The translations under genes and the position numbers were made by a program. Under the pieces are notes generated by a model. The model searched no databases, had not been told where the DNA came from, and saw nothing but the letters and a program-made list of their open reading frames with translations. Positions 18,741 to 27,510 of a stretch of 48,711 nt of DNA are shown here, piece by piece. Source of the stretch: Candidatus Hermodarchaeota archaeon (GTDB lineage: Archaea > Asgardarchaeota > Thorarchaeia > Thorarchaeales > Thorarchaeaceae); the NCBI GenBank assembly GCA_048885865.1, contig JBHLLF010000021.1, positions 1 to 48,711 of the forward strand, written 5' to 3'. Every line of letters begins with the position of its first letter. The first letter of the stretch is position 1.

Positions 18741-19706
18741 CTAAATCCATTGCCTTCTCCTGAAGTAAAAGAGGAACAGCACACCAATTGCAAGCATTGT
18801 TAGGACAACCAGTGGATATGCATATTCCAATTGAAATGGCATGTTTTGAAAATTCATACCAAAGATGCTTGCAATTAGTGTGAGGGGCATTAGAATAGTT
18901 GATACAACAGTCAGAACCTTGACGGTTTCGTTCGTCTTCGTATCAAGACGCAATAGATGAATCTCTAGCATGTTAGACAGATTATCCAAGTAAGCATCTG
19001 CCATTTCTCCTACATGAAGAAGATGGTCATGGAGATCCTTCAGGTATGGTCGGGAAGTTTCCATAATTACCTCTGACTCATCTCGTATGAGTCTTGAAAC
19101 CGCCTCTCGGAGTGGTCGAACGGTCCTCTGGAAAACGCCCATTAGATGCCTTAGTCTGTATATCTCATTAAGGGTAGTTTTATCCCATGATTCTAAAGCG
19201 TCCTCAAGTGCTTGAATTCTGTCATCAAATGAATCCATTACAGCTATATATCGATCAACCAAGGCGTCAATCAATAGATATCCCAAGAAATCAGACTTGC
19301 TGTTTCTCACCCTGCTCTTGGGATTTGATAGTCTTTGTCTTATGTGTGAAAAGAAGTCAATGTCACTCTCTTGAAATGATAAGACGAATCCAGAGCCCAC
19401 AATTATACTAACCTTTTCTGACTCCATTTGCACCGATGAGGTCAGTCTGAACTCTCGAAGAATCAAACAGAACTGGTCAGGGCCAGCGTCTAATTTAGGA
19501 CGATGTTTAGGATTGAGGATGTCTTCAACCAGGAGTGAGTGTATTCCGAACTGCCTACCAATCTGTTCAACCGATTGTCTTTCCTGAAGTCCCTTAAGAT
19601 GGACCCATCTTGTTAACTTAGAGTCCGCTGGTTCTGCACAATCATCGATAGAAGCCGCATCAGACACTCTAATTTCGGTTGGGCTGAAATCGATTATTGT
19701 GATCAT
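18741..19706 (-). CDS. corA: Magnesium/cobalt transporter CorA
   Basis: EDILN...RPK and GMNF signature; 2 C-terminal TM. Confidence 0.93.
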   Translation of the reverse strand: MITIIDFSPTEIRVSDAASIDDCAEPADSKLTRWVHLKGLQERQSVEQIGRQFGIHSLLVEDILNPKHRPKLDAGPDQFCLILREFRLTSSVQMESEKVSIIVGSGFVLSFQESDIDFFSHIRQRLSNPKSRVRNSKSDFLGYLLIDALVDRYIAVMDSFDDRIQALEDALESWDKTTLNEIYRLRHLMGVFQRTVRPLREAVSRLIRDESEVIMETSRPYLKDLHDHLLHVGEMADAYLDNLSNMLEIHLLRLDTKTNETVKVLTVVSTILMPLTLIASIFGMNFQNMPFQLEYAYPLVVLTMLAIGVLFLFYFRRRQWI

Positions 19707-19838: not shown

Positions 19839-20054
19839 CTATATAGGAACTCCTCCGGTTAGCATGCTAATGCAGATAATCATGGATAGCAGGAAGATCG
19901 CCGCCAACAACGTGTAATATGAGAAGAACTCTTCGGCGGTCATTGGATCATCTTTCGTGCGGGACTCTCGCTTTGGTTTTCGTTGACTCTTCCTCTTCTT
20001 GATATGAGTTGGTTTGGCTGAAGCGGAGCTCTTTCGAGTCGTGACTGTGCTCAT
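19839..20054 (-). CDS. Small basic protein with single C-terminal TM (tail-anchored-like)
   Basis: K/R/S-rich N-terminus, hydrophobic C-terminus. Confidence 0.55.
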   Translation of the reverse strand: MSTVTTRKSSASAKPTHIKKRKSQRKPKRESRTKDDPMTAEEFFSYYTLLAAIFLLSMIICISMLTGGVPI

Positions 20055-20093: not shown

Positions 20094-20453
20094 TCATCGA
20101 TTGAATAAGCCAGAGTATTCAATGGGCCGCATAGACCATTCCGACGCAATCTCACCTGCTGGATATTGCGTCCTGACCGGTGGCATCCAAGTCTGTGGGT
20201 ACATCCATATCTCAACTATACTCTTCGGGAAGCCTGCAGACTCTGGAACACGACCACGTAAAGTGTTCCTGTATACTGATAGCTGAATCCTATAGCTGGC
20301 TGTAGTACCATTCTTCAGGGTAACTCCTCCCTTATAGCTCCCTGATTTGAGACCATAGAAATCCTTCACATATCTGGGTACATAGAACATGTGGTAATGA
20401 CCTGCACCCTTCATCAATCTTGACAAGAATCTCAAAGGCATTCTAGATGTCAC
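20094..20453 (-). CDS. Hypothetical protein, possibly AbrB-like fold
   Basis: FYVPRYVKDFYGLKSG resembles the AbrB/MazE 'IP..IR..LGL..G' pattern; weak. Confidence 0.5.
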   Translation of the reverse strand: MTSRMPLRFLSRLMKGAGHYHMFYVPRYVKDFYGLKSGSYKGGVTLKNGTTASYRIQLSVYRNTLRGRVPESAGFPKSIVEIWMYPQTWMPPVRTQYPAGEIASEWSMRPIEYSGLFNR

Positions 20454-20491
20454 CTCACTTTCAGCTCTGAATCAAATTCCTTCAGAACTAG

Positions 20492-20543
20492 TGTATACAT
20501 ATGTAATCAAAATGTATATAAATATGTCTATCTTTGTATACAA
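20492..20543. promoter_or_regulatory. Phased array of TGTATACA-like boxes (array 1)
   Basis: Boxes at 20492, 20502, 20513, (20525) and 20535 between divergent genes. Confidence 0.6.
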
Positions 20544-20574
20544 TAGCGGCTTCATTGAAAAGGATGCTGACTCT

Positions 20575-20736
20575 ATGACTGAAGATATGATGATACGAGT
20601 TCCGCGTGAACTCAAAAAACGTTTCGAGAATCTTGAAAAGAAAAACTCATGGAAAGGCTTTGCTTCCTTCGTAAGAGAGGCAATACGTTTCCATCTTGAT
20701 CACCATGAGAAGATTGAGAGAAGCAACAACAGCTAG
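20575..20736 (+). CDS. Ribbon-helix-helix (CopG-like) regulator
   Basis: MMIRVPRELKKRFENL......FASFVREAIR pattern. Confidence 0.75.
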   Translation: MTEDMMIRVPRELKKRFENLEKKNSWKGFASFVREAIRFHLDHHEKIERSNNS

Positions 20737-20948
20737 TCGTCCAAAGAGATTAGAAGAAAGGATGAACTGCACCACGAGGAATCTACATCACTTGGTTCAT
20801 TTATCCAGTTCTAATTGATACCGTTCTATTTTGCATAGAAAGCAAATTGTCTACATTCTTGCCGCGACTGCGATTCGTATTGTTTTGAATCAATGTGAAT
20901 TCAATAGCGAATTGTGACGGCAATCAGCCACATAGCACATACTGTCAG

Positions 20949-21010
20949 TGTAAACAAATTTATAACCAAATGAATACATTATGTATACCAAAGTATACTA
21001 TTGTATACAA
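20949..21010. promoter_or_regulatory. Phased array of TGTATACA-like boxes (array 2)
   Basis: Boxes at 20949, 20971, 20982, 20992 and 21002. Confidence 0.6.
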
Positions 21011-21011
21011 T

Positions 21012-21764
21012 ATGGTGATTAGGATGTTGAATAGCAATTTGCGTCAGACTAATGCCAATCAAGAAGTTAAGCACCAAAAAGTCGAGAGAAGCGTGAGGTG
21101 GGTTGAGATTGACACCGAATGGGCCTATTGGATTGACCCGGAGTCATTCAATATCAAACGGCTAAAGAAACGTGCGCCCATAGGTGCAATCATAATTGTG
21201 AAGACTAGAAAGAAACTTGATGATGAAAGAACATACGTGGATGACTCATTTGGTTTGGTTATTGAAAAAGGAATAGAGGATCTTACGAAGAAGGAAGCAA
21301 GCGATATTCTTGCCAAGCAGGCATTGGAATACATGCGATGGGCGAAACATTGGCCGCCTTTCACGGAACTAAAGGAAATTCAAAAGTCTGGAGATGTGAA
21401 GGTCAGCTTTAAGCCCAGTGAGTACGACTCCTTCATTCTCGTGATGACCCGCAATATAATTGGTGCGGATCCAGCTGAGTTCCTGAGTAAACTCAAGAAA
21501 CATGTAGCTCCACAGGAACCAGCATGGAGAGTTGAAATTGCTAAATCGGGGAGATCAAGATGTCGTTCGTGTCGAGATTATATATTTGAGGGTAGATTTC
21601 GCATTGGTGAGCCATATTTCTATGAGGGGAGCCTTTCCTATAGATGGTATCACCCGAGATGTGTGACGAGAAGGATCGATGTGAATGAAATTGAAACTCT
21701 AGACGGTTATAGCATGCTTAGACCAGGCGAGAAACAACGTTTGAAGCATCTATTATCACAATAA
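21012..21764 (+). CDS. Unknown N-terminal domain fused to a C-terminal PARP-type zinc finger (start uncertain, 21012-21093)
   Basis: VEIAKSGRSRCRSC...I.....RIG.......WYHPRC matches the zf-PARP pattern; N-domain is paralogous to 23210-23674. Confidence 0.8.
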   Translation: MVIRMLNSNLRQTNANQEVKHQKVERSVRWVEIDTEWAYWIDPESFNIKRLKKRAPIGAIIIVKTRKKLDDERTYVDDSFGLVIEKGIEDLTKKEASDILAKQALEYMRWAKHWPPFTELKEIQKSGDVKVSFKPSEYDSFILVMTRNIIGADPAEFLSKLKKHVAPQEPAWRVEIAKSGRSRCRSCRDYIFEGRFRIGEPYFYEGSLSYRWYHPRCVTRRIDVNEIETLDGYSMLRPGEKQRLKHLLSQ

Positions 21765-21768
21765 GAAT

Positions 21769-23226
21769 TTGGATTGTGAATCAAGAAGGACATTTCAGAA
21801 GGGGCAGGGGTTGAAGACAGAGACACACACCACCAAAAGCAGGTTGGGTGGTGAGCATATCGTTTCAGGAACACTGTATGATGCTCGTTCATGTAACACA
21901 CTTGGGAATTTGTCTGTGGAGGTGTGGGATGAGGACTTTATAATGAATGATTTTCTGGGCTCAACAACTTCAGACTTGTATGGTCACTACCATGTTAGCT
22001 TTGAGAGGGACAAATTTCACGGGATTCTCGATGTGAACCCGGATGTCTACATCAAAGTCAAGAACAAGGATGGCATGTTATTGCATAGGTCTTCGACACG
22101 CAAAGAATCTGGGAACAACACAATCATTAATGCAAGGATAAGTGGAGTGGAGTTAGCGGGCAGAGTTTCTGACGGTTTATACCAGTGGAAGACATTCTAT
22201 AACCAAGAGGGCACACATGTTACTGTACGTATACGATTAGTACACGATAGCAGTATCAAAGAGAGCGAAATAGTGAGCCTGCGTGAGAAATGGAAAAGGG
22301 GTATAGAGGACATCTGGTCTGACCGCTATGCTTGCTGCTGTGAATCGTATATTAGCGCACTTTCTGATTGCAGTCGACCTGCACGACTGACATTTGAGGT
22401 TCAGTGGGTTGAGAAGAGTCCGCATTACACAGTAAATGTAAGGAAAGGTCCATCTGTGTCAAACATGCTACTATGGGATACTGAAGACTCTGAGGCAGTT
22501 GTTGCACATCACTTCGGTCATATGTTGGGCTTAGAAGACGAATACTATGACCCCTCTTGCCCCTTGAGGTCACCAGTCGATACAGGAACGATTATGGATG
22601 ATGGCATGCATGTTGTAAGTCGTCATGTGGATCACTTGTGTCAGTTTTTGAATCAGTCTACAGCTCCTATTCCACATCGAGGAAATTATGACGAGTTCTT
22701 ACCTGCTAGAAGTCAACGCGCCAAAGTCCCTGAACAAGCAGCGAATGAAGAGGTTAGTCGTCTTTTGAAGGCAATCACTTCAGGAGAAATGATGCTGGAA
22801 GAAGGTGACAAAATTACTCACAGAGTCATTGGTGGTTTCTCAAGTGACAGGTATGAATGGTTTCTTGAAATTCTCCATAATGGAAGAGCTACCCTCATTA
22901 TTAGAGATGAAATAAAGGAGGAAAAGGCAGAATATACAATATCTCTTGATTCATCATCGATAATGAGGCTCATCAAGGAAGTCATAGCCAGCGGAATCAG
23001 TAAAGCAAGCTCATCTAGTTATGGATATCTTCCAGACTCGCTCATAGGATGTTTTGCCTTAGATATCAGAGGGCTGCGGAAGTCTTGGTTCTTTTTAGCT
23101 AGCCCAATACAGAGAAGGGCACATCGCATTAGAATAGGAAAGGCCTGTGCGGCAGTGAATCGTTTGATGAGAAGAGTTGCTGAAACAGTAATAATGGGAG
23201 GAACCGAGGATGGTGAAATTGATTGA
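21769..23226 (+). CDS. Transthyretin-like domain + zincin-like domain with HHFGHMLGLEDEY motif + C-terminal domain (start uncertain)
   Basis: VEVWDED...DFLG..SD..G.Y segment; HExxHxxGL.DEY-like motif with E replaced by H. Confidence 0.7.
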   Translation: MDCESRRTFQKGQGLKTETHTTKSRLGGEHIVSGTLYDARSCNTLGNLSVEVWDEDFIMNDFLGSTTSDLYGHYHVSFERDKFHGILDVNPDVYIKVKNKDGMLLHRSSTRKESGNNTIINARISGVELAGRVSDGLYQWKTFYNQEGTHVTVRIRLVHDSSIKESEIVSLREKWKRGIEDIWSDRYACCCESYISALSDCSRPARLTFEVQWVEKSPHYTVNVRKGPSVSNMLLWDTEDSEAVVAHHFGHMLGLEDEYYDPSCPLRSPVDTGTIMDDGMHVVSRHVDHLCQFLNQSTAPIPHRGNYDEFLPARSQRAKVPEQAANEEVSRLLKAITSGEMMLEEGDKITHRVIGGFSSDRYEWFLEILHNGRATLIIRDEIKEEKAEYTISLDSSSIMRLIKEVIASGISKASSSSYGYLPDSLIGCFALDIRGLRKSWFFLASPIQRRAHRIRIGKACAAVNRLMRRVAETVIMGGTEDGEID

Positions 23227-23674
23227 AATCAAACATGATTGGGCAATTTGGGTAGATGCTGACAGTTTCGAAACTTGTCAAACAAAGAATCAGGCCCCCA
23301 TCCACTCGATTGTAATCATGAAGACAAAGGAGGCGCCCAAAGGGGAACCTTGCTACATCAAAACTGCGTATGGAATAGTTGGTGAATTCGGAATTGTCGG
23401 AATCAACAAAAAATCTGCTTGTGAGATACTCTCAAATCGAGCCATTGACTTCATCCAAAGGACTGGACATTGGCCACCATGCACAAACTTGAAGAGGGTT
23501 TTGAAGTCGGGAGATGTCGAACTATCGTTCACAATTACAGAACATGACGCGTTTACGTTAAGAGTAACTGCAGACATGGCCGATGGTAATCCACTTGATT
23601 TTCTTTTGGGGCTCAACCAATATGAGAAACCAAGAACATCTCAGAGAGGGCCTAATCAATTAATAAGCACTTGA
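23210..23674 (+). CDS. Hypothetical protein, stand-alone paralogue of the zf-PARP protein N-domain
   Basis: Shared WA.W.D..SF, API, KK.A..IL, HWPP.T.LK...KSGDV..SF and P..FL..L motifs. Confidence 0.75.
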   Translation: MVKLIEIKHDWAIWVDADSFETCQTKNQAPIHSIVIMKTKEAPKGEPCYIKTAYGIVGEFGIVGINKKSACEILSNRAIDFIQRTGHWPPCTNLKRVLKSGDVELSFTITEHDAFTLRVTADMADGNPLDFLLGLNQYEKPRTSQRGPNQLIST

Positions 23675-23729
23675 AGATGATATGAGAATTTTGGGGAATT
23701 TCTGCAACTAATGGAGGTAGAAATGAGGA

Positions 23730-24272
23730 GTGTCTTCTGAGTATTACCCAAGCTGGTCAAGATGGCTCGATTTAGTAATTGGGGTCGCCATTCTTGTAGT
23801 GAGTCTATGGATTGTCATCGATTCCACATTGACACAACGCACAATAATCTTGACGATAGCGATTGCATTATTGATTGTTGGTTTTGTCAGGATTATCAAG
23901 AGCATTTTCATGAAACGAATTGATACAAGATCCCGTATTACCAAAGGAACTGTAGGAGTTGCTGCAGTCCTAATATCAGTGGGTGTTGTCCTATTTCCAG
24001 GCCTCGCAATCACATTTCTAGTTACAATGATGACCTTCGCGATTATGCTTATGGGAATGTCAAGAGTAATAGTAGGATACTTGGAGAGAGAACTTGCTAC
24101 ATGGGCCAGAGCTCTATACATGATTGGCGGCGCTATAGCCTTTGGTTTTGGTTTCCTGGCAGCATTATTCCCTGGACTAGGGTTCTACACCTTAATTCTG
24201 CTAATATCCGCAGCGATGATTACTGTGGGAGTCATTCGAATTGCAAGTGGAATAACAGGAGAGCTGAGATAG
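23730..24272 (+). CDS. HdeD/DUF308 family membrane protein
   Basis: Six TM helices in repeated hairpin pattern; paralogue at 24932. Confidence 0.75.
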   Translation: MSSEYYPSWSRWLDLVIGVAILVVSLWIVIDSTLTQRTIILTIAIALLIVGFVRIIKSIFMKRIDTRSRITKGTVGVAAVLISVGVVLFPGLAITFLVTMMTFAIMLMGMSRVIVGYLERELATWARALYMIGGAIAFGFGFLAALFPGLGFYTLILLISAAMITVGVIRIASGITGELR

Positions 24273-24307
24273 CATAACAACATGATAGAACAAGCAGACG
24301 TGAGTGA

Positions 24308-24886
24308 ATGGAAATGAGCAGGAAATTGCCAGTCAGAGATGTATATACAGTAAAGACGTTTCTTAATGACTTGAAGAAGATGAATCTAACACCTAGTGGA
24401 TTATACACAATTGGCACTGAAGTTGTATATTATGAATGGCTGAAGGCTATTGACAATCTTGGTGAAAATGACTCTGTTGTCGTCTATTTGGAAGAACTTC
24501 TCAATTTCATGCAAACGGATTATGAGCGTCGGTTGGTGGAAGCGGACCTCCGCCGGGAGAAGGACACACCTGGAGCTACAATCAATTCATTTCTCAAAGA
24601 AACCCCCCTAGAATTTCAGTCCTATGTTCTTCAACGTTCGGGCGAGTTCATAAGCGGGGTTCTTCGGGCGGCTCAGGCCATCAATAGGAGAGAGATTGAG
24701 AGGTATGAGAGAATAGAAAACAGGCTATCAGCTGAACTTGAAGAGAATCCGGATAATCCTGAACTCTGGAATCAGCTCAGACTTGCCCTGTGGATTCTCG
24801 GACGACATGATGAGGCAAGTTTTGCGTTCAAGCAGGCGAAGAAGCTGGGATGGGACAAAAGGAAGTCAAGGACGGTCGCAGTTTAG
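24308..24886 (+). CDS. Hypothetical protein with C-terminal TPR
   Basis: NPDNPELWNQLRLALWILGRHDEA..AF..A TPR motif. Confidence 0.7.
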   Translation: MEMSRKLPVRDVYTVKTFLNDLKKMNLTPSGLYTIGTEVVYYEWLKAIDNLGENDSVVVYLEELLNFMQTDYERRLVEADLRREKDTPGATINSFLKETPLEFQSYVLQRSGEFISGVLRAAQAINRREIERYERIENRLSAELEENPDNPELWNQLRLALWILGRHDEASFAFKQAKKLGWDKRKSRTVAV

Positions 24887-24931
24887 CTATCAGTTGCCTT
24901 GAACAGATATCCCATCCTTAGATTGCATAAA

Positions 24932-25465
24932 TTAGATATCCCCAGTGACTCCACTGACGACGCGTGCAGCCCCAGCCATGATAAAAGCAATCGAAGCAAA
25001 CAGGGAAAGTGTGATGAAACCAAGCCCAGGGACAATTAGAATCAGAACAGGTATTGCAGCTCCTATAGCCCCCACAAGAAGGTGAAAGACACGCGTCCTC
25101 ATGCTCATCTCGGCTTCGCTATAGAAGATTATAATCCTAGCCGCACCTGTGAAGAAAAGGGCTATTGCCACAATTGAGATCAGAAGATTAATTCCAAAGG
25201 CAGGAAAGACCAATACTATGACAGCAAGGATTACCGACAGTAATCCTGTGATAACATGTATTGCTCTGCTTGTTCGTTTGAGACTCATAACGACTGCCCC
25301 TTTGGAAATCCTTGCAATTCCAATAAGAACAAGGCCAACTGCAAAGATAAGAAGAATGATAGCTTCGGCGAGTGTTCCGCCAAGAATCACCCACGAACCC
25401 AATACGATTAGGATCAGACCCACAAGCAGATCTAATACTCGAATGGAGTTGGGAGCGGAGGACAT
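24932..25465 (-). CDS. HdeD/DUF308 family membrane protein
   Basis: Paralogue of 23730-24272 (R.LDL..G; ends SG.TG(D/E)). Confidence 0.75.
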   Translation of the reverse strand: MSSAPNSIRVLDLLVGLILIVLGSWVILGGTLAEAIILLIFAVGLVLIGIARISKGAVVMSLKRTSRAIHVITGLLSVILAVIVLVFPAFGINLLISIVAIALFFTGAARIIIFYSEAEMSMRTRVFHLLVGAIGAAIPVLILIVPGLGFITLSLFASIAFIMAGAARVVSGVTGDI

Positions 25466-25695: not shown

Positions 25696-27510
25696 ATGAT
25701 AGAGAAAGCAATCATAAAGCATCAAGTGCGGCTTTACATTTTGGGTGCGATAATTGGAGTCGTATCAGGTCTGGTTGCAGTTGGCTTCAGATGGCTAATT
25801 CTTGGATTCAGTGTCTTATTTGTATGGATTCCTCAGAATGTGGGCTTGTTTGGTTGGCTTGTAATTCCAGTTCTCGGAGGCCTAATAGTTGCATTCATTG
25901 TACAGAGGTATGCTCCAGAAGCTAAAGGGCACGGAGTCCCCGAACTGATGGACGCATATGCTCTTCGGGGGGGGAGAATTCGAATGCGAGTCCCGCTTTT
26001 GAAGAGCCTTGCGTCAGCGTTATGCATAGGTTCGGGAGGATCTTGCGGCAGAGAAGGGCCTATAGCACAAATAGGCGGGGGAGTGGGTTCTGCAATTGCA
26101 GGAAAACTGAAGCTCAACACTCGAATAACAAAGACATTGGTGGTCTGTGGCGTATCGTCTGGAATTGCTGCATCATTCAATGCTCCATTAGGAGGTACAC
26201 TTTTCGGGATTGAGATAATAGCTGGAGGGCTAGTTGGATTCTCCATCATTCCAGTTATCCTGTCATCTGTTGTGGCGACCGCACTAGCAAATGCAATCTT
26301 GGGTAACCAGCCTTCATTTCAAGCACCTCTGTTCTCTTTGAACAACTATTTTGAACTTGGATTCTATTTGATTCTAGGACTTCTTTTTGGGCTTATCAGC
26401 GTCGCGTGGACAAGAGGTTTCTATACCATTGAAGACTTCCTTGAGCGCCTTAGAGTATCAAAATACCTTCTGCCTGCGATTGGGGGCTTGCTTGTAGGTG
26501 GTCTTGCGATATCTATTGTCTTCGTAGAGCAGGCATTTTCTTATTCCGGTTTCTTCAAGCCCAACGAACCATACTTCCCAGCCAATATGGGGGTAGGGTA
26601 TGCATTCATGGATACAGCCCTGCTTGGCAGTGTGCCGCTTGCTGTGCTTCTCATCTTTGGGATAGTGAAAGCATTATCAACATCATTCACCTTGGGCTCA
26701 GGGGGTTCTGGTGGAGTCTTTGCGCCGACTCTGTATATGGGAACAGCCTTGGGTGGAGCTTTCGGTCTAGCATGCTCAATTGCTTTTCCAGGTGTGATTC
26801 CAGAGCCAATGGCTTTTGGTATCGTTGGAATGGCTGCCCTCTTTGCGGGATCGGGACGAGCACCAATTACATGCATTGTAATGGTGATGGAGATGACAAG
26901 TGACTATTCCATGATTCTCCCATTAATGATAGCGGTATCAACCTCATTCCTTGTTGCTTCGTCAATAGAGGAAGAAAGCATCTACAGTCTAAAGCTGTCA
27001 CGAAGGGGTGTGAAACTAAGACGCGGATCTTACATTGGCGCTCTGAGAGAGATCAAAGCTGGACAGGTCATGACTAAAATTCCGACTGCGCTGGCTCCTG
27101 GCATGACAAAGGAAGAAGTGCTCAAGATAGTCGACGACACACAACACACGAAGTTCCCAGTGGTCAATGGAGAGGGTCGAGTCGTCGGGACACTCATTAC
27201 AGAAGATCTGTTCTGTGAGATTGCAATAGAAGGCACGTGTCCAGTAGAGGCTCTAATGAACCCGGACTTTTTGCATATCACTGCAGACAGCTCGATGGAT
27301 AGTGTTCTTCACGCCATGCTCGAACGGGGTGAAGGCCATGCCGTCGTCGTGGACGCAACGAATCCACACAAGATGATTGGGTTCATCACAAAAGCAGATG
27401 TGCTTCGAGCCTATGAGCTTTCAATCGTCAGACTCAGAGAAGAAGGAGAACCCATAGATGCAATTGATCCTCTAAGTACAATACTTGAATCGATTGACGG
27501 GATTGAGTAG
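25696..27510 (+). CDS. ClC chloride channel/antiporter with CBS domains
   Basis: GHGVPE, GREGP and GGVFAP motifs; C-terminal CBS pair. Confidence 0.93.
   Translation: MIEKAIIKHQVRLYILGAIIGVVSGLVAVGFRWLILGFSVLFVWIPQNVGLFGWLVIPVLGGLIVAFIVQRYAPEAKGHGVPELMDAYALRGGRIRMRVPLLKSLASALCIGSGGSCGREGPIAQIGGGVGSAIAGKLKLNTRITKTLVVCGVSSGIAASFNAPLGGTLFGIEIIAGGLVGFSIIPVILSSVVATALANAILGNQPSFQAPLFSLNNYFELGFYLILGLLFGLISVAWTRGFYTIEDFLERLRVSKYLLPAIGGLLVGGLAISIVFVEQAFSYSGFFKPNEPYFPANMGVGYAFMDTALLGSVPLAVLLIFGIVKALSTSFTLGSGGSGGVFAPTLYMGTALGGAFGLACSIAFPGVIPEPMAFGIVGMAALFAGSGRAPITCIVMVMEMTSDYSMILPLMIAVSTSFLVASSIEEESIYSLKLSRRGVKLRRGSYIGALREIKAGQVMTKIPTALAPGMTKEEVLKIVDDTQHTKFPVVNGEGRVVGTLITEDLFCEIAIEGTCPVEALMNPDFLHITADSSMDSVLHAMLERGEGHAVVVDATNPHKMIGFITKADVLRAYELSIVRLREEGEPIDAIDPLSTILESIDGIE

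Follow-up and report, generated by a model that had tools for sequence, protein, structure and literature searches.

PARP-type zinc fingers (zf-PARP) are the textbook nick sensors of eukaryotes: in PARP1 and DNA ligase III (Lig3) they sense DNA nicks and breaks, and for both proteins it is established that they do so as structure-specific sensors and not as sequence-specific binders. Here we analyse a gene of an Asgard archaeon, X-zfPARP, whose 250-aa product joins such a finger to a second domain, which we call domain X, together with the cluster of genes that surrounds it. The gene lies in a stretch of 48,711 nucleotides (the window), contig C21 of an 87%-complete metagenome-assembled genome (MAG; G000) of Candidatus Hermodarchaeota archaeon; all genomes compared are MAGs, and relatives are not independent of one another. 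An initial annotation, made from the sequence alone, had proposed a DNA-damage or virus-sensing module with paired X domains and membrane effectors. The reading that we tentatively favour is that X-zfPARP acts as a stress-linked, DNA-break-binding adaptor controlled by a ribbon-helix-helix (RHH) regulator, in which domain X would serve for pairing or recruitment, with a free copy of X and a probable pseudo-protease as clade-specific accessories.

A PARP-type finger joined to domain X

The C-terminal finger that the initial annotation had recognised in X-zfPARP is well supported, scoring 50.0 bits against the Pfam zf-PARP model (PF00645; gathering threshold 39.3, E 5.3e-13) and 51.1 bits for the same domain in a genome scan. 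In an AlphaFold2 model of the protein (44-sequence alignment, pLDDT 89.8), residues 168-250 superpose on PARP1 Zn1 (4opx_A, 3od8_A) with a Z of 12.6 and an rmsd of 2.1 over 82 aa, and the fold superposition gives Z 11.6 for PARP1 Zn2 and 8.9 for the Lig3 finger; the Foldseek E is ~1e-6. A phmmer alignment places the zinc ligands, C-x2-C...H-x2-C, on C21/C24/H53/C56 of PARP1, retains arginines of the R18/R34 type (SGR and (L/F)R) and shows an aromatic residue in the loop where PARP1 has F44. The finger segment is basic (pI 9.4), the X domains nearly neutral, with a median net charge of –1, and between the window and its relative G373, the pair used for all substitution ratios given here, X-zfPARP has a dN/dS of 0.07. 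Judged by sequence and model, this finger has everything expected of a DNA-break sensor in sequence and structure, and it would dock on nicks or breaks.

The likeness to Zn1 and Zn2 of PARP1 and to the Lig3 finger thus extends from domain family and fold (28% identity) to the CCHC site, the arginines that grip the backbone and the aromatic residue of the base-stacking loop, and in X-zfPARP too the finger is joined to another module. Unlike PARP1 and Lig3, X-zfPARP has a single, C-terminal finger, its partner is domain X and its host is an Asgard archaeon; a Pfam search of the 250-aa protein found no PARP catalytic or ligase adenylation domain, and WGR and BRCT domains are likewise missing.

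Domain X, which the initial annotation did not recognise, resisted identification here as well. Modelled alone, its 137 aa give a pLDDT of 95.3 and a pTM of 0.87, with seven strands, a 19-residue helix, three strands and two short helices in that order. No Pfam family is common to 30 members, a profile search of the PDB gave no match below E 0.3, and the best Foldseek match to the PDB has an E of 0.057. A VIA-wide fold search reached at best Z 5.3 over 56 aa and a second VIA search Z 3.5; the BFVD viral library yielded at best E 7e-3 with a TM of 0.22, and the ESM Atlas no usable match. These fold-search values fall under the tool's own background level. Domain X therefore matches no known fold, although the absence of matches does not prove a new one. 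One Lys, one Asp and one Phe (K64, D139 and F141 of the 250-aa protein) are invariant in the family.

A profile search of 1.84 billion representatives found domain X in just 129 clusters, most of them combining it with zf-PARP. The remaining architectures comprise an N-terminal extension before X and the finger, a tandem X-X-zf form, X and finger with RPA_C, WD40 with X, X with a SWIM-like tail, giant leucine-rich repeat (LRR) proteins with a C-terminal X, an ankyrin-repeat protein with an X-like N-terminal segment, and a subfamily of 275-330 aa that pairs X with a conserved C-terminal domain of ~100 aa (alignment A5). Because X occurs in tandem X-X-zfPARP proteins and in fusions with WD40, LRR, ankyrin, SWIM-like and RPA_C partners, we take the about neutral N-terminal domain to serve, putatively, for pairing or recruitment and not for binding DNA. 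The tandem proteins also bear out the earlier idea of paired X domains as an architecture, the pairing itself being our inference.

Among the less common forms, the ~100-aa C-terminal domain of the 275-330-aa subfamily (P0094, P0110, L053:8206-9027) looks OB-like by eye and has no Pfam or PDB profile match. The SWIM-like form, L049:3060-3692 (–), ends in a CxC...CxH tail. The LRR proteins of 1000-1735 aa (L050:8852-13690 (–), P0095, P0105, P0109) carry X near the C-terminus, and the N-terminal ~860 aa of P0095 are without a Pfam match.

Within the phylum, X is found in 76 of 400 genomes (42 of 85 in family f1 and 23 of 31 in family f8) and zf-PARP in 101 of the 400, against none of 14 control genomes. 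The zf-PARP counts in f1 and f8 equal the X counts, and in these two families the finger is always fused to X. Public annotations read just "PARP-type zinc finger-containing protein", and our literature search found no published report of an Asgard zf-PARP. If these proteins sense strand breaks, they would offer a simple, enzyme-free model of break sensing before PARP1 and Lig3 and would add a candidate eukaryotic signature domain. Domain X lends itself well to structure determination. In f9-f12 there are ~266-aa proteins with two tandem zf-PARP fingers, a helical tail and no X (e.g. L263:2612-3412 (–)), which recall the Zn1-Zn2 arrangement of PARP1.

A clade-specific cluster around X-zfPARP

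We surveyed the neighbourhoods of 79 X loci, counting partners within 3 kb. The zincin gene is near X in six of them, the RHH-like gene and orf119 in nine and hsp20, directly downstream, in seven; all these co-occurrences belong to one Thorarchaeal clade (genera g1, g12 and g6), and about 70 of the 79 loci are without any partner. Metagenome contigs (L183-L185) add three more lineages with the order X-zf, hsp20, zincin, free X. The genes do co-occur elsewhere, in at least eight lineages, and the initial annotation, which would have been refuted had they never done so, withstands this check. They do so only inside a single clade of family level, however, and taken as a whole the X-zfPARP family has no fixed link to these partners. 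The multi-gene "system" is thus a recently rearranged, clade-specific cluster and not a conserved machine; it matters less than X-zfPARP itself, its one intriguing feature being a conserved loss of Glu in the linked metzincin.

The rearrangement can be followed in the relatives. In G368, G378, G362, G360, G370 and G320, hsp20 follows X-zf by ~25 nt on the same strand, and the zincin of hsp20-bearing relatives has about 84 more codons with a further TTR domain. In a DNA alignment ~65 nt of the window stand for ~900 nt of G368, a deletion of ~0.84 kb that is shared with G373, is seen equally relative to L024, L143 and L026, and removed hsp20 together with the first TTR domain of the zincin. The initial annotation had called the genes tightly coupled; the open reading frames (ORFs) and their spacing (a gap of 4 nt from X-zf to zincin, an overlap of 17 nt between zincin and free X) hold, but the first of these couplings is secondary, since the deletion produced it. 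Between G000 and G373 (L022, G373:C15) the block 20922-23680 is 96-99% identical with a dS of 0.05-0.09, while in its flanks identity is mostly 81-92%, with patches of higher similarity, and dS is 0.15-0.64. Such a mosaic points to a recent recombination event or to a sweep by the allele that carries the deletion. As hsp20 ancestrally lay ~25 nt 3′ of X-zfPARP, this gene would have its place in a stress or damage response rather than in antiviral defence.

Autoregulated RHH operons (CopG/MetJ/Arc-type) pair a small RHH-like gene with short palindromic boxes set in arrays, and the region upstream of X-zfPARP has a similar make-up. The RHH gene noted there earlier has a weak match to RHH_1 (E 0.0092), with a score of 16.4 bits that stays under the Pfam cut-off of 20.5, and NCBIfam gives a RelB-like match at E 0.066; RHH homologues of 61-90 aa hold the same position in relatives. 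Perfect TGTATACA sites occur three times in the window, at 20492, 20535 and 21002, flanking the starts of the RHH-like and X-zf genes. At one mismatch or fewer there are 29 sites against 14.9 expected, and one-mismatch copies lie ~10-11 or 21-22 bp from the perfect ones. Six relatives have equivalent arrays ahead of their RHH and X-zf genes, and in L022-L028 the boxes fall at –63 to +16 of the X-zf start codon. Boxes ~10-11 bp apart, at the promoter of the RHH-like gene itself and at a downstream promoter, fit the operon model; unlike in RHH operons, the RHH-like gene is below the Pfam threshold, its divergent partner orf119 is an orphan and binding is predicted. In the Thorarchaeal clade X-zfPARP would be controlled jointly with the divergent orf119/RHH pair via the shared TGTATACA boxes.

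The orphan orf119 is well conserved, with 51 invariant columns in its alignment (A6). The earlier label AbrB-like could not be upheld, as orf119 has no Pfam or NCBIfam match and a PDB profile search returned spurious LRR rows only. We also set aside a toxin-antitoxin reading of the RHH/orf119 pair, the genes being divergent and the RelB similarity reaching just E 0.066.

The zincin-like protein has its closest described counterparts in snapalysin (M7) and InhA (M6). It has H-x-x-x-H-x-x-G-x-x-D followed ~19 residues on by an invariant Met, its motif aligns with snapalysin 1c7k, and its weak matches to M6, M7 and snapalysin profiles, with Pfam and NCBIfam scores below thresholds, centre on that motif; H247, H251, D257 and M276 are invariant in the family alignment (A3), and the wider HEFGHMLGxxDEY family looks active. 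Unlike snapalysin and InhA, the protein is intracellular, belongs to a family without signal peptide and has TTR-like N-domains and a ~190-aa C-domain. It also lacks the catalytic Glu, as the initial annotation had pointed out: the window motif reads HHFGHMLGLEDEY, and the window and all X-linked homologues have HHFGH, against HEFGH in all 70-plus other homologues, Asgard and bacterial, the non-Thorarchaeal ones included. The Glu-to-His variant is confined to the X-adjacent clade, throughout which it occurs, and HEFGH forms never have X nearby. Catalytically dead protease homologues exist, non-proteolytic ADAMs among them, and like these the zincin, as far as its sequence tells, keeps the metal-ligand scaffold under purifying selection (pN/pS 0.09 for the metallopeptidase part, dN/dS 0.40 for the whole protein) and has lost the general base. 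It is probably a pseudo-protease and would serve to bind rather than to cleave.

Of the 400 genomes, just 10 encode the zincin, and the 40%-identical Hod-type TTR-TTR-zincins (L186-L189) have no X nearby. In the form HEFGHMLGxPDEY, the catalytic core marks a widespread bacterial family (L065-L141, e.g. L103:7728-8489 (+)) with hosts in Actinomycetota, Burkholderiales, Cyanobacteria and Acidobacteriota; 254-aa stand-alone forms and long fusions both occur, and no Pfam-A model scores above threshold. Among the Asgard TTR-TTR-zincins, P0178 ends in a DNA-binding tail resembling the RNA polymerase alpha CTD/HhH, P0176, P0177 and P0179 have a common conserved C-terminal tail of ~35 aa, and P0177 has a precomputed PF09851 match.

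The second, free copy of domain X, noticed already in the initial annotation, is 38% identical to domain X over 141 aa (E 6e-38) and has a dN/dS of 0.20. In the X tree the free X clade (G000, G373 and G370) is sister to the RHH-linked X-zf clade (support 99/89), which argues that free X arose as a local duplicate of X-zf and then lost the finger. In five lineages the zincin gene either overlaps free X or lies right beside it, and free X there is 54-96% identical to that of the window; on the metagenome contigs free X lies directly 3′ of the zincin gene, overlapping it in L183 and L184 and ~10 nt away in L185. This kinship and this adjacency again point to X as a pairing or adaptor module, and the finger-less free X would probably heterodimerise with X-zfPARP or with the adjacent Glu-less metzincin.

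Weighing the alternatives

If the cluster were a set of historical neighbours only, X-zfPARP would act alone, and the zincin, free X, DUF308 and TPR genes would be unrelated occupants of a variable region in one clade. The many X loci without any of the partners are what this predicts, no neighbour family is enriched, even close genomes differ in the presence or place of hsp20, zincin, free X, DUF308a and ferritin, and in the window the tight coupling resulted from a deletion. We nevertheless hold this to be somewhat unlikely: five lineages keep zincin and free X in contact, Glu gives way to His just where X adjoins, free X derives from the neighbouring X-zf, and the metallopeptidase domain is under purifying selection. 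Alternatively, X-zfPARP could be a transcription factor or chromatin protein, with the finger as a general DNA binder and X as a ligand or stress sensor, that regulates the adjacent hsp20, ferritin-like, DUF308 and CorA genes. Its small size, the neutral, well-conserved and sensor-like X, the RPA_C winged helix of one relative and the recurrence of stress and ion-homeostasis genes directly beside X-zfPARP in different families would all suit such a role. It is unlikely, as zf-PARP is known as a structure-specific sensor whose break-binding residues X-zfPARP retains, as the separate RHH gene and boxes already account for regulation in the Thorarchaeal clade, and as neighbours vary widely among loci.

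It is highly unlikely that the genes form an antiviral or conflict system whose paired X domains detect DNA damage or viral DNA and whose membrane effectors are the DUF308 proteins. A sensor of nucleic acids combined with a degenerate protease, small membrane proteins and variable gene content has the look of one, and the LRR giants with X at the C-terminus recall NLR-like sensors. None of the eight proteins, however, matches PADLOC-DB 2.0 (E ≤ 0.01), no relative was found in viral contigs, the conserved companions are a chaperone and a ferritin, and the flanks hold housekeeping genes (CorA, MFS, ClC and CdhA in the ORF list) instead of a defence island; the DUF308 genes are dispensable between genomes that share the 96-99% identical core block. 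Of the proposed damage or virus sensing, the hallmarks of the finger leave the first part standing, and nothing points to the second.

A DNA-break-binding adaptor with a link to stress, as preferred here, draws its stress theme from the recurrence of hsp20, ferritin or ferritin-like, DUF308 and CorA genes near X. Of the 79 loci, 9 have DUF308 near X and 8 have CorA; for each, four lie beyond the Thorarchaeal clade, and loci of another family are among them. Ferritin is near X in three loci and a ferritin-like diiron gene (weak PDB matches) in 14 f8 loci, which makes 17 loci with such a gene directly upstream. Several observations weigh against this reading. No function is identifiable for X, whose invariant Lys, Asp and Phe could belong to the active site of an enzyme. 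Among 118 genes immediately flanking distant X copies no Pfam family occurs more than five times; most X-zfPARP genes thus lack a conserved neighbour, and the loci behind the stress theme are a minority, drawn from related genomes. The window itself has lost hsp20 by the deletion. Its zincin may moreover be decaying, since the C-domain has a pN/pS of ~1.9 (few sites) and the first TTR domain is deleted. A bolder version of the adaptor reading is doubtful: domain X would be a new fold and the effector or adaptor arm of Asgard-wide DNA-break sensors, the Asgard fingers would be ancestral to the nick sensors of PARP1 and Lig3, and Thorarchaeia would have recruited a zinc-binding pseudo-protease and free X into a stress-induced complex.

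As for the ferritin-like genes themselves, all through f8 a gene for a 160-aa diiron four-helix bundle precedes X-zfPARP by ~100 bp in the same orientation (L055:7840-8319 (+) and 13 further loci), and two f1 loci (L029 and L144) have a PF00210 ferritin gene at 47-121 bp from X-zf.

Layout of the locus and its other genes

The locus is bounded by CorA (18741-19706, –) and a ClC channel (25696-27510, +) in the ORF list, with orf71, orf119, the RHH-like gene, X-zfPARP, zincin, free X, DUF308a, the TPR-like gene and DUF308b between them in this order (Table 1).

Table 1. Coordinates of genes and box arrays at the X-zfPARP locus, in positions of the window
Feature	Position	Strand	Pfam	Remarks
orf119	20094..20453	–		conserved orphan gene, divergent from RHH gene
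Operator-like TGTATACA boxes	20492..20542			orf119/RHH intergenic region
RHH-like regulator	20491..20736	+		probable start ATG 20575, ~53 aa
Second array, TGTATACA-like boxes	20949..21009			ends just 5′ of X-zfPARP start codon
X-zfPARP, 250 aa	21012..21764	+		domain X 21093-21503; PARP-type zinc finger ~21516-21752
Zincin-like gene, 485 aa	21769..23226	+		N-terminally truncated TTR + metzincin-like + C-terminal domain
Free X paralogue, 154 aa	23210..23674	+		overlaps end of zincin gene
DUF308a (DUF308/HdeD-like membrane protein)	23730..24272	+	PF03729	variable accessory gene
TPR-like gene, 192 aa	24308..24886	+		weak TPR-like C-terminus
DUF308b (DUF308/HdeD-like membrane protein)	24932..25465	–	PF03729	convergent

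Both genes first described as HdeD-like pass the Pfam threshold for DUF308 (28.6 bits for DUF308a and 29.4 for DUF308b against 25), the match to the NCBIfam HdeD model being weak (19.3 bits vs 189). The TPR gene of the initial annotation is a less certain case, its weak C-terminal matches all lying below cut-offs (TPR_14, the best, 17.2 bits vs 23.5; MamA 20.8 vs 200). In G373 DUF308a is absent as a clean indel (window 23683-24273), and free X is followed directly by the TPR-like gene; in G368 and G320 the TPR-like gene adjoins DUF308a, but both lie elsewhere relative to X-zf. Genes that move or drop out in this way between close genomes do not bear out the suggested membrane effectors, and the DUF308, TPR, ferritin and CorA genes are best read as loose stress or ion-homeostasis neighbours. 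The small gene orf71 (19839-20054, –) encodes a protein whose N-terminus is strongly basic and for which a single membrane helix is predicted, and is kept between CorA and orf119 in four related genomes.

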